Shown piece by piece: positions 827 to 15,189 of a DNA stretch of 15,427 nt. The DNA is from Candidatus Heimdallarchaeota archaeon (GTDB lineage Archaea; Asgardarchaeota; Heimdallarchaeia; JABLTI01). Positions within the stretch are counted from its first letter, which is position 1, and each line of letters begins with the position of its first letter. A model generated the notes under the pieces. The model saw only the letters and a list, made by a program, of their open reading frames with translations. It did no database searches and was not told where the DNA came from. Position numbers and translations under genes: made by a program. The stretch is taken from NCBI GenBank assembly GCA_030614005.1, contig JAUWKS010000070.1, positions 1 to 15,427 of the forward strand, given 5' to 3'.

Positions 827-839
827 AAATAAGAAAATA
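827..839 (-). terminator. Putative T-rich terminator of the 5S precursor
   Basis: TATTTTCTTATTT immediately follows the 3' arm of the processing stem. Confidence 0.45.
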
Positions 840-841
840 GT

Positions 842-998
842 CGCCAAAACTCACCATTTCCGGGATCGGACGGGTCCGGGTGTTGCCCTCCAGCTTTGAC
901 CGCGTCGCAACGCAGCTTTACGATTTTCCCGAACGATCGCTCAGATCAGTAATCATCATAACGTATAGAGGCTTAACTTCCAGTGATGAGTTTTTGCG
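842..998 (-). other. Precursor processing stem with a bulge-helix-bulge-like motif flanking the permuted 5S
   Basis: CGCAAAAACTCATCA (998-984) pairs with TGGTGAGTTTTGGCG (856-842), with one mismatch and one G-U. Central helix CTGG (983-980)/CCGG (863-860). Three-nt bulges AAG (979-977) and AAA (859-857). Confidence 0.85.
858..977 (-). rRNA. rrf: 5S rRNA, circularly permuted gene (3' half 977-907 precedes 5' half 906-858)
   Basis: Minus strand reads GTTAAGCCTCTATACGTTATGATGATTACTGATCTGAGCGATCGTTCGGGAAAATCGTAAAGCTGCGTTGC then GACGCGGTCAAAGCTGGAGGGCAACACCCGGACCCGTCCGATCCCGGAA. Swapping the halves gives a 120-nt 5S in which helices I-V can all be drawn by hand. Confidence 0.93.
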
Positions 999-1022
999 TG
1001 ATTCAATCGTTTTATCTTTTGC

Positions 1023-1030
1023 TTTTTAAA
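1023..1030 (-). promoter_or_regulatory. Putative TATA box (TTTAAAAA) of the 5S precursor
   Basis: Lies about 25 nt upstream of the start of the processing stem (998), with a purine-rich BRE-like sequence upstream. Confidence 0.55.
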
Positions 1031-1056
1031 GTTTGCCATCTTTCTTTTTGTTTTCC

Positions 1057-3762: not shown

Positions 3763-4191
3763 TTAAACAAATAATTGTATATCAGCATCAACTGCTATAT
3801 CTAAAAATCCTGCTGCACCCATAAATCCATCTACTTCTGGGATTAGGTGTTCTTTTTTTACCATCATTAAATCCATAGTAGCGGTACAAGCATAAATTGT
3901 AAGGTTACCAGAATCTTTTGCTGCTTCTAGCAATTCTTGCATTGATGCGATTCCTACTTTCCTTATTCGCCACCGCATCATTCCAGTGCCTAAGCGCATA
4001 ATTCCTGGCAATTTCGCTCTTTTCAAACCTTTTTTCCTTAAGAGAAGAAGGCCCCAGAATGTGAAGAACAAATCGATTTTCATATCAGATGCTCCTGCAG
4101 CTGCAGCAAGCATTAATGGTGGGTAAGCTTTGTCTAGAGTACCTGAATGTACGACAATAGCCATTTTTTTAACATCAACCATTTTTATCAT
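3763..4191 (-). CDS. DsrE2/DsrE-F-like family protein
   Basis: Motifs IVVHSGTLDKAYPPLMLA, LFFTFWGL, YACTATM and GAAGFL; directly upstream of tusA. Confidence 0.88.
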   Translation of the reverse strand: MIKMVDVKKMAIVVHSGTLDKAYPPLMLAAAAGASDMKIDLFFTFWGLLLLRKKGLKRAKLPGIMRLGTGMMRWRIRKVGIASMQELLEAAKDSGNLTIYACTATMDLMMVKKEHLIPEVDGFMGAAGFLDIAVDADIQLFV

Positions 4192-4357: not shown

Positions 4358-4723
4358 TTGGGTAAAATAGCATTTCTTGTAATGACTTCACCGTACAGCT
4401 TTCAAAATTCTGACACTGTCATTCATTTTGCAAAGGCAGCAATAAAAGCTGGACATGAAGTTACAGGCATTTATCTTTACACAGATGGGGTGTATAATGT
4501 TGTAAAAGACATTGAACCATCTGATGATAGAGATCGAAATATTCCTGCATTGTTTAAGGAGCTTATTGATGCCGGAATACCTGTTGTTGCTTGTCCGATT
4601 TGTGCTGAATATCGTGGTACAATGGGCAAGGAAAAGATTATCGAAGGAAGTAGTTTTGATGGTCTTGGTGCTCTTAGCGAGTACGTTGAAGATTCCGATC
4701 GGATTCTTATTTTTACTGCATAA
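4358..4723 (+). CDS. DsrE/TusD-like sulfur relay subunit
   Basis: Motifs IYLYTDGVY and ACPICAEYRG; first of three ~110-120-aa consecutive genes. Confidence 0.85.
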   Translation: MGKIAFLVMTSPYSFQNSDTVIHFAKAAIKAGHEVTGIYLYTDGVYNVVKDIEPSDDRDRNIPALFKELIDAGIPVVACPICAEYRGTMGKEKIIEGSSFDGLGALSEYVEDSDRILIFTA

Positions 4724-4736
4724 AAGGTGAGATGGT

Positions 4737-5096
4737 ATGGAACGTGTTATTGTTCTCTTTCGTAAAGGCCCTTACGGTCAAATAAACAGTTTAGAAGGCA
4801 TCCGCGTTGGGCAAGGGTTACTTGTTTTAGATGTGGAAAACGATGCTGTTTTTATTGATGATGGTGTTTTCAATCTCATTAAAGATCAAAATCCCGATGG
4901 AATTGGTCATCATTCAGTTATGGGTGCTCTTGAAGCTCTACATAGGTACGAAGTACCCATCTTTGCACTTGATCAATCACTCGAGCAAAGAGGTATCAAA
5001 GCAGAAGACCTTGATCCCAAACTTGAAGTGAAAATAATTTCACTTGCTGAGCTTAGCGAACTGCTCATAGTAGCAGATGCTACAATTGCTCTTTAG
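4737..5096 (+). CDS. DsrF/TusC-like subunit
   Basis: Motifs KGPYG, VFIDDGVFNL and SLEQRGI. Confidence 0.85.
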   Translation: MERVIVLFRKGPYGQINSLEGIRVGQGLLVLDVENDAVFIDDGVFNLIKDQNPDGIGHHSVMGALEALHRYEVPIFALDQSLEQRGIKAEDLDPKLEVKIISLAELSELLIVADATIAL

Positions 5097-5108: not shown

Positions 5109-5438
5109 ATGGTGAAAGTATTGTACATAACCTCAAAAAGTATCTACACTTGTGCTGCACAAGGAACCCTACTTGATATTACAAAAAGTCAAATGGATAA
5201 TGGTCATGATGTTGGTGTTCTCTTAATACAAGATAGCACTTTAGCTGCATGGAAAGGTGGAAAGAACATCATAGCTGAAGCTGCTGCTCACGGTGTTGAA
5301 GTATATGCAATAAAAGAAGATTTGGAAGCTCGTGGGATTACTGGAGACAAAGTTCATCCAGGCATAAAGCAAGTGGATTATGATGAATCCATTTCCATTA
5401 TAATGGATAAATATGAGAAAGTTATCACTTGGTGTTAA
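5109..5438 (+). CDS. DsrH/TusB-like subunit
   Basis: Motifs LLIQDS, YAIKEDLEARGI and C-terminal ITW. Confidence 0.87.
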   Translation: MVKVLYITSKSIYTCAAQGTLLDITKSQMDNGHDVGVLLIQDSTLAAWKGGKNIIAEAAAHGVEVYAIKEDLEARGITGDKVHPGIKQVDYDESISIIMDKYEKVITWC

Positions 5439-5584: not shown

Positions 5585-6421
5585 ATGGCAAATAAAGATG
5601 AAAAACCAAAACTTTCCGGTCTAGCTATTGACCCAAAGAAAGCTAAAGTAAATGCTACCTTGAAAGATATTAAACATGTTTTAATCGTAGCAAGTGGAAA
5701 AGGTGGAGTGGGTAAAACAACAGTGGCAGTAAATCTAGCAACTTCGTTATCTCAAAAAGGACATAAAGTCGGCATTCTCGATGCAGATATTACAGGTCCA
5801 AATGTTCCTAAAATGGTTGGATTGGAAGGGCAACGACCAGACTATAATGAAGAATTGAAAAAAATCATTCCTGTTGAATCAGCTCAAGGAGTCAAAGTAA
5901 TTTCTATGGAGTTTCTTTTAGAAGACAATACAGATGCTATCATTTGGCGTGGTCCTCTAAAAATGGGAGCAATCAATCAGTTTCTTGGAGATGTCAAGTG
6001 GGGTGAATTAGATTATCTAATCATTGATCTTCCACCCGGAACCAGCGATGAACCATTAAGTATCGCACAAATGATACCAGAAGCAGATGGAGTTGTAATT
6101 GTCACTACACCTCAAGAAGTAGCTTTGTTGGATGTTAGAAAATCAATTAATTTTGTAAAGAAAGTAGGATTGAAAGTTATTGGTATTATTGAGAATATGA
6201 GCGGTTTCAAGTGCCCTCATTGCAGTGAAGTCATTAACATATTCGGTATTGATGGTGGAAAAAATGCTGCCAAGGAACTTAATATTCCATTCTTAGGTGC
6301 TATTCCTCTTAATCCAGAGATAGTTCCACTTGCTGATGCAGGTAAACCAATTGTTTCTGTTGAAGCTGAAACAAAAGAAGCTTTTCAAAATATCGTTGAA
6401 AATATCTTGAAAGAAATTTAA
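5585..6421 (+). CDS. mrp: Mrp/NBP35 (ApbC) Fe-S cluster carrier ATPase
   Basis: Deviant Walker [24 protein letters not shown] and ENMS..FKCPHC. Confidence 0.95.
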
Positions 6422-7399: not shown

Positions 7400-7708
7400 T
7401 TATGCTGATTTTACTATCTCGACACCACGAGATCTTGGATAATTTCTAACCCAAGTAGCTTTGCATACTTCACAGGTTAAACGTAAATCGACTTTTTGTG
7501 AAGTCTTTGAAGCCATTTTAGATTGGCTGATAGCTTTCTTTGAGTACTTTCCTTTGTTGCCAGCACCTTTTTTGTTTCTGATGGCACGTCTAGTACCCGC
7601 TACCATTCCACTACCACGTCTTCCGCCTTTTTCTTGCCTTACGGTCATATTGGTGTGTTTTCCACATTTAGGACAATGGGTACGCATTTTTGCAGGAATT
7701 TTAACCAT
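7400..7708 (-). CDS. rpl44e: 50S ribosomal protein L44e (eL42)
   Basis: RTHCPKCGKHT...KVDLRLTCEVCK Zn-ribbon in a basic 102-aa protein. Confidence 0.93.
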   Translation of the reverse strand: MVKIPAKMRTHCPKCGKHTNMTVRQEKGGRRGSGMVAGTRRAIRNKKGAGNKGKYSKKAISQSKMASKTSQKVDLRLTCEVCKATWVRNYPRSRGVEIVKSA

Positions 7709-8814: not shown

Positions 8815-9513
8815 CTAATATTTGGCAAGAATCATTGCGTGATCTTTCTCTAGAGGATGCAAATCTACTGCTTCTATATTCTCAAACCCTTCAGCTTCAA
8901 TGATATTCATTTGTTGTTTGTAAACTACAGAAGGATTCTTTGTTGCGCTTATACTTCTAGACTTAACAGCAAGCATTAGATATCCTCCTTTTTTAAGGAA
9001 CATCTTTGCATTCTCAGTGATAATCTTCCCTTGATCTGGCTGGGCAACATCACAATAGACGACATCAACTTGATCAACAACATTTTCATAATTTCGTGGG
9101 ATACGAGCATCATCTAGAATGGGCAGCATATTTTCTCGTTTTTCGCAAAGAAAAACTAAATCCCTTATTGATCTTGGTGAAAATTCCACACAAAACTCGA
9201 ATCCTTGTTTACCAAGAATGTCAGATACATGACTCGGAGTAGTGCCTGAAGCTGCACCTAAATAGAGAACCTTTGCTCCTGGAACAATGGGACATTTTTT
9301 TAATCCTTTAACAAGCGCAGCGGCTAATTTCGATCTTGTTGGATCCCATAAACGATATTCATCTTTACCATCTGGCACCAAATCTTCACCATAGACTTGA
9401 TGTCCTGGTGTTAGATTTTTAGTAGCAATACGTCTGGATCCATCCCGAAAGAACACATTATAAATTTCATCAAATGATTTGTATTTCTTAATTTCCATGT
9501 AATTCACCTTCAA
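8815..9513 (-). CDS. flpA: Fibrillarin-like rRNA/tRNA 2'-O-methyltransferase
   Basis: Motifs YRLWDPTRSKLAAA, VLYLGAASGTTPSHVSD, VEFSPR and DVAQPDQ. Confidence 0.97.
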   Translation of the reverse strand: MKVNYMEIKKYKSFDEIYNVFFRDGSRRIATKNLTPGHQVYGEDLVPDGKDEYRLWDPTRSKLAAALVKGLKKCPIVPGAKVLYLGAASGTTPSHVSDILGKQGFEFCVEFSPRSIRDLVFLCEKRENMLPILDDARIPRNYENVVDQVDVVYCDVAQPDQGKIITENAKMFLKKGGYLMLAVKSRSISATKNPSVVYKQQMNIIEAEGFENIEAVDLHPLEKDHAMILAKY

Positions 9514-9518
9514 ATCCC

Positions 9519-10781
9519 TTATCTTCTTCTTGGGGGACGTCCTCCACTTTTATGTTTACCATTTGATTTTGACTGTCTTGGCCTCTGACTTGAATGCGGT
9601 CTCGTTCTAGGAGTTTGCATTCTCTTCGATTTGTCGGGAGGTTCTGGATATTTGGTTTTTATTTCATTGATCTTTGCGTTCAAATCTTTAGCAATTTCTT
9701 TAGAATTATCAACAGCCTCAAAGAAATCCATTCGAGCAGCTATTGATAACCTACCTGCAATTACTCGAGCAATTTTTCCTCTAAGCCACCATTTTGACTG
9801 ATTTAATTTTGGGTCTTGGAAAATAATGCCATGTTTTGGAGGAGGAGCGCCTGTTTTAATGGTACGATAAAGTGCTTTCTCTGCACCCAGTATTTGTATT
9901 TTACTTGATGGGGAAAAAGCAAGACTTCTGAGGCTACCTGACAATGCTATTAACCGAGCACCAATAAGAGCACTTGTAACACCACACATATTTGGTGCTA
10001 TTGTAGTCATTGTTTCTTCCATCCACTTCTCTAAATCTATTCTTCTAACATACAAGTCAGCAACTACTTTAGCTTGCTTTTTAATAATTTCAATGTCTCG
10101 ATCAAGAAGAGTTGAGCCCATCGATTTTTCTCTTGCATCAAGTATACTCTGTGCTTTTTTAGCGGGGAGATGAAGCTCATCAACAAGTAATTTTTTATCA
10201 ATATTTGACTTGTCGCCAGTTTTGCTAACAATTATTGCAAAAGTATTATGATTTTCTATTGCATCAGCCAATTCCGGAAAATGCATTCCGTAAAATTCAC
10301 GCAATCTACCAGCGAATAAATTAAGTGTTTTATCAATGTCATCTATTGTTTCAATTGCATGAACAACCAATCTATCTCTCTTTTCTGCTGCTTGTCTAAC
10401 TCTTTCTCGAGTTACTAAAAGATTAACTTCTCGCAGAAACCTTCTGTATTTGTAATCATCAGAGAATAAACCAGAATTTACAACTTGATCTACGATTTCT
10501 TTGTGGAATTTATCGATTATTGGGTTATCGTAATTTCCTAAAACTTTGAATCCTTTTCCGGAGAGAGTCCTTCCTATATCTGGACGTTGAACTGAAATTT
10601 CATCGCTTTTGTGTTCCTTTAGCATTTCAGCTAGTTCTTTTGGAAGCTCTCCTCCATCCAACAAAACTAGTTTTTCAGCTATTTTTGTTGGGTCGAGCTC
10701 AAAATAACGAACATCAATGATGTTGCCCTCTTCATCCAAGAGAACGGGTCCCACATATGAAATTGCAAGATAAGTTTTCAT
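9519..10781 (-). CDS. nop5: Nop5 (Nop56/58) box C/D RNP protein
   Basis: Motifs RLREFYGMHFPEL, IQILGAEKALYR, PPKHGIIFQ and RGKIAR, with a basic C-terminal tail; adjacent to fibrillarin. Confidence 0.96.
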   Translation of the reverse strand: MKTYLAISYVGPVLLDEEGNIIDVRYFELDPTKIAEKLVLLDGGELPKELAEMLKEHKSDEISVQRPDIGRTLSGKGFKVLGNYDNPIIDKFHKEIVDQVVNSGLFSDDYKYRRFLREVNLLVTRERVRQAAEKRDRLVVHAIETIDDIDKTLNLFAGRLREFYGMHFPELADAIENHNTFAIIVSKTGDKSNIDKKLLVDELHLPAKKAQSILDAREKSMGSTLLDRDIEIIKKQAKVVADLYVRRIDLEKWMEETMTTIAPNMCGVTSALIGARLIALSGSLRSLAFSPSSKIQILGAEKALYRTIKTGAPPPKHGIIFQDPKLNQSKWWLRGKIARVIAGRLSIAARMDFFEAVDNSKEIAKDLNAKINEIKTKYPEPPDKSKRMQTPRTRPHSSQRPRQSKSNGKHKSGGRPPRRR

Positions 10782-15112: not shown

Positions 15113-15189
15113 GCCGTTGTGGCTTAGCTCGGTAAAGCATTTGATTCGTAATCAAAGGATCGCGGGTTCAAATCCCGTCAGCGGCTCCA
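15113..15189 (+). tRNA. tRNA-Thr (anticodon CGT), intron-less, CCA encoded
   Basis: Acceptor GCCGTTG/CAGCGGC, anticodon arm TTTGA-TTCGTAA-TCAAA, T-arm GCGGG-TTCAAAT-CCCGT, discriminator T followed by CCA. Confidence 0.97.

Follow-up and report, generated by a model that had tools for sequence, protein, structure and literature searches.

A circularly permuted 5S rRNA gene in a Heimdall-group archaeon and a closed 120-nt RNA ring as its probable product

The locus and its permuted gene

The window, which is the whole 15,427-nucleotide stretch of DNA that we analyzed (contig JAUWKS010000070.1 of assembly GCA_030614005.1, from Candidatus Heimdallarchaeota archaeon), carries near its start a 120-nt RNA gene on the minus strand, followed by a series of protein-coding genes. 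The RNA gene is adjoined by a gene for a 546-residue SBBP beta-propeller repeat protein (1286-2926, minus), whose best matches among the records scanned are bacterial (Planctomycetales, Flavobacteriaceae, and others, with 27-38% identity) bar one Heimdall MAG (92%), which hints at a bacterial origin for this repeat gene. Farther along lie a cluster of genes for small DsrE/DsrF/DsrH-like sulfur-relay proteins (3763-4191, minus; 4358-4723, 4737-5096, and 5109-5438, plus), a gene for a NUBPL/Mrp-type P-loop ATPase that comes after this cluster (5585-6421), and the gene for ribosomal protein eL42 (L44e family; 7400-7708). The genes for fibrillarin (8815-9513) and Nop5 (9519-10781), the core of the C/D-box methylation complex, adjoin each other on the minus strand, and a tRNA-Thr(CGU) gene without an intron is found at 15113-15189 on the plus strand (68.6 bits). 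The features of the RNA gene and of its presumed transcription unit are as follows.

858..977, minus strand: circularly permuted 5S rRNA, 120 nt, identified by Rfam pieces, consensus fold, rotated alignment, and circular RNA contigs
899..916, minus strand: helix I, in which 916-910 are paired with 905-899 and a UGCG tetraloop (909-906) lies at the would-be native 5S ends
1023..1037, minus strand: putative promoter element GGCAAACTTTAAAAA, with a TATA-like box TTTAAAAA at 1030-1023, ~25 nt upstream of the flanking stem
827..839, minus strand: T-rich tract TATTTTCTTATTT, a likely transcription stop

Read on the minus strand, on which the coordinates were checked, 977..858 starts with GUUAAGCC and finishes with CCCGGAA, and the second part of the 5S rRNA precedes the first. 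The order of parts is the 3' strands of helices III and II, helices V and IV, a loop-closed helix I, the 5' strand of helix II, and helix III with loop C. In other words, the 3' part is encoded upstream of the 5' part, the native ends are linked within the gene, and the new ends fall in helix III. No 5S rRNA was found in the window at the Rfam gathering score (38 bits), a colinear RF00001 match above that score failing because the gene is permuted. At a permissive E-value threshold, RF00001 matches as two pieces in swapped order (15.6 and 14 bits), with model positions 27-51 mapping to 881-858 and the portion from approximately position 46 to the end mapping to ~978-911. When the 120 nt are treated as a ring and rotated to the conventional start, they are colinear with canonical Hermod-type Asgard 5S genes, showing 73-74% identity over 114 of the 120 nt (E 1e-13). 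Two characteristic 5S motifs are present, CCGAxCCCGGAAGUUAAGC in loop C/helix III and GGGAA in the loop E region, the first of which is whole only across the 858|977 joint.

Since the helices are AU-rich, single-sequence folding misses the 5S fold: minimum free energy (MFE) predictions did not reproduce it, whether the ring was treated as circular, linear, or rotated, and the structure was taken from a comparative fold instead. RNAalifold analysis of an alignment of 25 permuted genes from three families gave the five-helix, three-domain fold of 5S rRNA, with helices I, II, III, IV, and V in permuted order and compensatory changes in 21 of the 33 pairs. Helix I covaries as well (columns 62-69/73-80 of alignment A1), and its loop is variable with a length of 3-5 nt. 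No second 5S candidate was found in the whole 3.6-Mb assembly (126 contigs, 90% complete). Together, these results confirm that the locus 977..858 encodes a 5S rRNA in circularly permuted form and is the sole 5S candidate of the genome, and the conservation of its structure indicates that it is a working 5S gene.

An initial reading of this DNA, made from the sequence alone and hereafter called the sequence-only reading, had placed the unit between a TATA-like box (1030-1023) and a T-rich terminator (839-827). Both features bear up. The box is conserved in the 11 genomes of the genus: counted from the mature 5' base, AAACTTTAAA(A) lies at -53 to -50, with shifts of up to 3 nt, in 11/11 of them while the neighboring sequence varies. 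The tract is present in the window, there are T-runs downstream of the stem in relatives, and we consider it a likely transcription stop.

A relaxed bulge-helix-bulge motif around the gene

[quoted passage not shown]

984..998, minus strand: outer processing stem, leader strand (BHB helix h), pairing with 856-842
842..856, minus strand: outer processing stem, trailer strand, pairing with 998-984
980..983, minus strand: leader strand of the central 4-bp helix (H), CUGG, pairing with 863-860 and mimicking the partner of this strand in mature helix III
860..863, minus strand: CCGG, serving as 3' strand of two helices in turn, helix H of the precursor and upper helix III of the mature RNA
977..979, minus strand: 5' bulge A979 A978 G977, with a predicted cut at 978|977; AAG is invariant in families f1 and f3
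857..859, minus strand: 3' bulge A859 A858 A857, between helix H and the outer stem, with a predicted cut at 858|857; invariant in f1 and f3

The outer stem, for which the sequence-only reading had counted 15 pairs (998-984/856-842), is indeed present, but it comprises 14 standard pairs and one A.G mismatch (995/845). Conservation in relatives is confined to its inner 11 pairs (994-984/856-846), the outermost 3-4 pairs being specific to the source genome and to one other (G010). The 4-bp CUGG/CCGG helix and the two 3-nt segments AAG and AAA that had been proposed next to the stem are all seen in the sequence. The helix consists of the pairs C983-G860, U982.G861 (the one G.U pair), G981-C862, and G980-C863, and the MFE fold of 1005..835 recovers both it and the stem. 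Between h and H, AAA (859-857) forms a true bulge of canonical geometry, but AAG (979-977) opens after helix H into a junction, not a bulge. The inner helix h' is absent, since 976-973 give no pairs with 864-867, and the motif is therefore of the relaxed hBH form rather than a canonical BHB (the BHB motif itself is described in PMC7714728), in agreement with the earlier remark that no inner helix was evident. In the mature fold, 863-860 pair with 879-876 (Rfam alignment), so that the leader CUGG competes with helix III, as was supposed when the precursor and mature folds were proposed to be mutually exclusive. BHB motifs are cleaved after the second base of the bulge. Cuts at these positions would free exactly 977..858 (120 nt), and joining the ends of this fragment would restore CCCGGAA|GUUAAGC.

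The proposal had been made to depend on conservation of the flanking stem in relatives that carry the permutation, and such conservation was found. Among 22 relatives from families f1 and f3, 12 of the 15 stem pairs have changed on both sides in a compensatory manner. In these 22 genomes, 79% of the cells in the stem are paired, a share that drops to 30-52% if the partner strand is shifted by 1-3 columns, and the covariation of the stem is 0.486 versus 0.25 in shuffles, with 0/500 shuffles reaching as high a value. These figures indicate that pairing in the stem exceeds chance and that the processing motif is under selection.

The short central helix shows the same kind of concerted change over a much wider range, as the 4-nt leader mimic tracks changes in the helix III strand across ~20 Asgard families. 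The leader/helix III pairs found in different families are CYGG/CCGG, CGUG/CACG, CUGG/UCAG, CCGC/GCGG, CCAG/CUGG, and CRGG/CCUG; an A.C occurs at the inner pair of helix H in five genomes of family f3. The bulges come in two registers, either AAG and AAA or AAA and GAA, and in both of them a cut after the second bulge base would restore the conserved GGAAGUUAAG (~20 families). For four genomes (G016, G030, G082, and G092), the BHB registers that were assigned automatically were rejected as implausible; by eye, CGGG/CCUG, CAGG/CCUG, and CGUG/CACG fit. Family f2, which is of the Heimdallarchaeum type (L022:1525-1546, L021, L026, L029, and L042-L045), has an extra conserved 8-bp leader hairpin (for example, CAUCUGGA-UGCG-UCCAGAUG), which separates the outer-stem strand from the 4-bp helix. 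Three pairs of this hairpin are compensatory, and its presence places the BHB of these genomes at a three-way junction.

Circular RNA and its proposed maturation

Four RNA runs from four studies (X1, X2, X3, and X10), which sampled a wetland, two sediments, and a salt marsh and used different library types, were each found to contain one 150-nt contig that is 100% identical to the window. A length of 150 nt (120 + 30) is that of a closed k-mer cycle at a word size of 31. These contigs join 858 to 977, which is the back-splice junction that the sequence-only reading had suggested searching for, and they pass through the loop of helix I. They span 858-977 only (to 981 in one run, via the repeated GGAA), and flank depth is 0 even at a mean contig depth of 295 (the mean word depth in X1 is 2). 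The 858-to-977 junction is single, with no alternative form in the four studies, and it agrees with the predicted cuts to within 4 nt; as GGAA occurs on either side of the joint, the reads do not fix the cut site inside these 4 nt. The ring sequence is abundant in metatranscriptomes, with a depth of up to 295. A wider sampling of words from 820-1040 gave a similar picture. Of 20 matching runs listed (16 studies), 18 are RNA or probable RNA and contain 0.46-0.54 of these words, a share that corresponds to the 120-nt part alone. In 18 DNA runs, the share is 0.58-1.00, flanks included. The ligated-flank product CACUGGAA|AUGGUGAG had no cover in the contigs of the four runs, which cannot show its absence. 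Likewise, precursors are too rare to assemble in the RNA runs, and zero flank cover is no proof that they are absent. With one mean depth per contig, the contigs show the closed form and do not measure the circular fraction of the molecules. These data support the existence of a closed 120-nt ring as RNA.

The ring might be an intermediate only, re-opened in or near the helix I loop into a conventional linear 5S rRNA, as in the permuted tRNA genes of Cyanidioschyzon, and the contigs leave some room for this since they cannot measure local depth. However, the native ends are linked by a mere 3-5-nt loop on an 8-bp helix, which has neither a leader nor a trailer for an end-processing enzyme. Moreover, four of the four contigs are closed cycles that include this loop, even at the mean word depth of 2 in X1, and no contig carries flanks that would mark precursors. 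We thus consider re-opening unlikely.

As for the enzymes that could produce the ring, the genome contains two EndA-domain paralogues (G000:C82:3390-3644 and C9:74694-74954) and one RtcB gene (C59:15784-17091). The closest matches of the first EndA gene are catalytic subunits of two-subunit enzymes from crenarchaea (2cv8, 3p1z_B, and 3ajv_B). In the second, alignment with the M. jannaschii enzyme puts a Pro at the position of the catalytic His, which suggests a structural subunit. [quoted passage not shown] Asgard archaea are reported to have (alpha-beta)2 EndA with an L1 loop, and relaxed motifs are cut only by the (alpha-beta)2 and epsilon2 types of EndA (Kaneta et al. 2018, PMC5829648). The predicted (alpha-beta)2-type enzyme fits a motif without h', and EndA would be the nuclease and RtcB the ligase at the 5S locus.

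The same ring could in principle be made by other enzymes, that is, by a non-EndA nuclease, or by a ligase of the Rnl3/Pab1020 type instead of RtcB. The motif does lack h', and other archaeal RNA ligases circularize many RNAs, according to work cited in PMC7758197. Set against this are the geometry of the motif, with 4 bp and two 3-nt bulges, the fact that the second-base rule restores GGAAGUUAAG in both registers in ~20 families, and the presence in the genome of RtcB together with an EndA of the type known to accept relaxed motifs. A different set of enzymes is, in our view, quite improbable.

Our preferred explanation, to which we assign a probability of about 0.75, is that a permuted single 5S gene is cut by EndA and its product closed by RtcB into a ring that is most likely the 5S rRNA of the ribosome. 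The gene would be transcribed alone from a TATA-type promoter, giving a primary transcript of ~160 nt whose leader and trailer would pair into the outer stem. The leader mimic CUGG would capture the 3' strand of helix III and thereby create the relaxed hBH motif, in which the (alpha-beta)2 EndA would cut at 978|977 and 858|857, in both 3-nt bulges behind the second base. With the leader removed, helix III would re-form and bring A858 and G977 side by side, allowing RtcB to join A858 to G977. The product would be a 120-nt ring, covalently closed, that has the sequence and fold of a normal 5S rRNA and a UGCG-capped helix I. The sequence-only reading had proposed that this 5S rRNA matures like an intron circle through the tRNA splicing machinery; the existence of the ring upholds the first part of this idea, while the enzymes and the exact cuts are predicted.

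Distribution in Asgard archaea and comparison with known systems

We then turned to the distribution of the permuted gene, using R1, a covariance model of it. Full-length matches to R1 are present in 78 of the 82 genomes of the class, in all seven families, and single-contig genomes of the class carry the permuted arrangement without a canonical 5S gene. These numbers bear on whether the ring and the gene could be artifacts, in the form either of template switching at the GGAA repeat, of a misassembly, or of a dead rearranged gene with the real 5S gene left unassembled. There is a 4-nt repeat at the joint, and the genome is 90% complete. Nevertheless, an identical single junction appears in four studies with different library types, the arrangement is shared across the class, including by single-contig genomes, and the structure is strongly conserved, so that an artifact has almost no probability.

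Within the class, both closed Heimdallarchaeum genomes have two permuted 5S copies each (L068 and G016:C1:2238496-2238616; G026:C1:2829760-2829880 and G026:C1:2471139-2471259). A tRNA gene lies ~150-250 nt from the permuted 5S gene in several f2 loci, and tRNA genes beside the 5S loci of relatives contain insertions of 11-19 nt, either in the anticodon loop (L045:1236-1322) or in the variable-arm region (L044:1164-1243 and others). One apparently canonical Rfam match, in G036 (38.4 bits), was rejected because it consists of the 5' half of the permuted gene and unrelated trailing sequence, and it is neither a colinear gene nor a duplication intermediate.

Beyond the class, in a sample of 151 genomes of the phylum, many further families have a full-length permuted match and no canonical Rfam match. 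These permuted-only families include f14 (Prometheoarchaeia-labelled) and f8 (genomes of 1.3-1.4 Mb). In the same sample, a colinear 5S gene above the Rfam cut-off is found in families f11, f17, f20, f15, f27, and f28. Family f17 contains records named Hermodarchaeota (loci 100% identical), Thorarchaeota-labelled records match a colinear pattern derived from f11 and f17, and f11 presumably corresponds to Thorarchaeia. The canonical 5S gene is retained in Thor-labelled MAGs and in the Hermod family.

Some taxon labels are at odds with these patterns. Among the records with the permuted pattern are one labelled "Thorarchaeota," one labelled "Hermodarchaeota," and one labelled "Bathyarchaeia," the last bearing a Heimdall-type permuted 5S; those with the canonical pattern include one "Odinarchaeota" and one "Hodarchaeaceae" record. 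A record named Odinarchaeota (H3S.115) and a genome assigned to the Hermod-type family f17 are identical, and the submitters' labels and the genome-taxonomy families disagree among L112-L181, L253, and L255. Bacterial records retrieved by scans with degenerate DNA patterns (Corynebacterium, Actinoallomurus, and others) were treated as chance matches and rejected.

These observations raise a broader proposition, which we would put at even odds: that a closed 120-nt ring is the working ribosomal 5S rRNA in most Asgard archaea (Heimdall, Hod, Loki/Prometheoarchaeia, and Odin types), through one ancient permutation at the same position in helix III, with Thor-labelled archaea, Hermod, and eukaryotes being colinear. 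If so, the permutation would be a rare genomic change bearing on the branching order of Asgard archaea and on the point of attachment of eukaryotes, or else it would imply reversion. Permuted versus colinear 5S offers a discrete character for Asgard phylogeny. The proposed route would also add a core part of the ribosome to the moonlighting tasks of the tRNA splicing machinery, in the closest archaeal relatives of eukaryotes. 5S rRNA is universal, and here its conserved helix III/loop C can arise only through cutting and joining. On the practical side, the permuted arrangement makes 5S genes look "missing" in Heimdall-group relatives of eukaryotes. In most Asgard genomes, 5S escapes standard annotation, and their rRNA-based quality grades are lowered as a result; R1 is directly usable to annotate the permuted genes.

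Full-text searches of the literature turned up neither a permuted nor an obligately circular 5S rRNA from archaea. According to a 2026 paper, archaeal 16S and 23S undergo processing by excision and circularization but 5S does not (PMC12918454), and the authors of the closed Heimdallarchaeum genomes noted that 5S could not be predicted (PMC8813620). Archaeal pre-16S and pre-23S rRNAs resemble the present case in having a BHB in a leader-trailer stem and in undergoing EndA-type excision and ligation, and a circular or permuted form of 23S has been reported in ribosomes (PMC7758197; PMC12918454). Unlike the permuted 5S gene, however, their genes are colinear, and rebuilding their sequence needs no circularization (PMC7758197; PMC12918454). 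Circular 5S-containing molecules were also detected by RNA-seq in Sulfolobus and Halobacterium, where, according to PMC12558985 (citing Danan et al. 2012), the genes are colinear and the circles are minor species with variable ends that are read as decay products. The Asgard ring, in contrast, has one exact junction, which is required to form helix III.

We know of no circular product for the permuted 5S rRNAs of mitochondria. The latter provide another example of a natural 5S permutation missed by standard models, but they are organellar and lack a BHB or EndA pathway (Valach et al. 2014, PMC4267664). Another parallel is offered by the permuted tRNA genes of Cyanidioschyzon merolae, in which the 3' half likewise precedes the 5' half, the termini carry a BHB, and the RNA goes through a circular stage (PMC3978253). 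The tRNA circle is only an intermediate, which RNase P and tRNase Z open at an intervening sequence (PMC3978253), whereas the native ends of the 5S rRNA are separated by a 3-5-nt loop only.

The nearest precedent comes from Thermoproteus tenax, whose SRP RNA gene is permuted (Plagens et al. 2015, PMC4731332). This SRP RNA, too, is an essential structured RNA encoded in swapped halves, with new ends near a functional loop and a gene that seemed "missing"; the tRNA splicing endonuclease processes the site, and ligation yields a stable circular functional RNA (PMC4731332). The differences are that the T. tenax arrangement is limited to one genus, whereas the permuted 5S is a component of the ribosome and is spread over much of a phylum, and that cleavage here is predicted.
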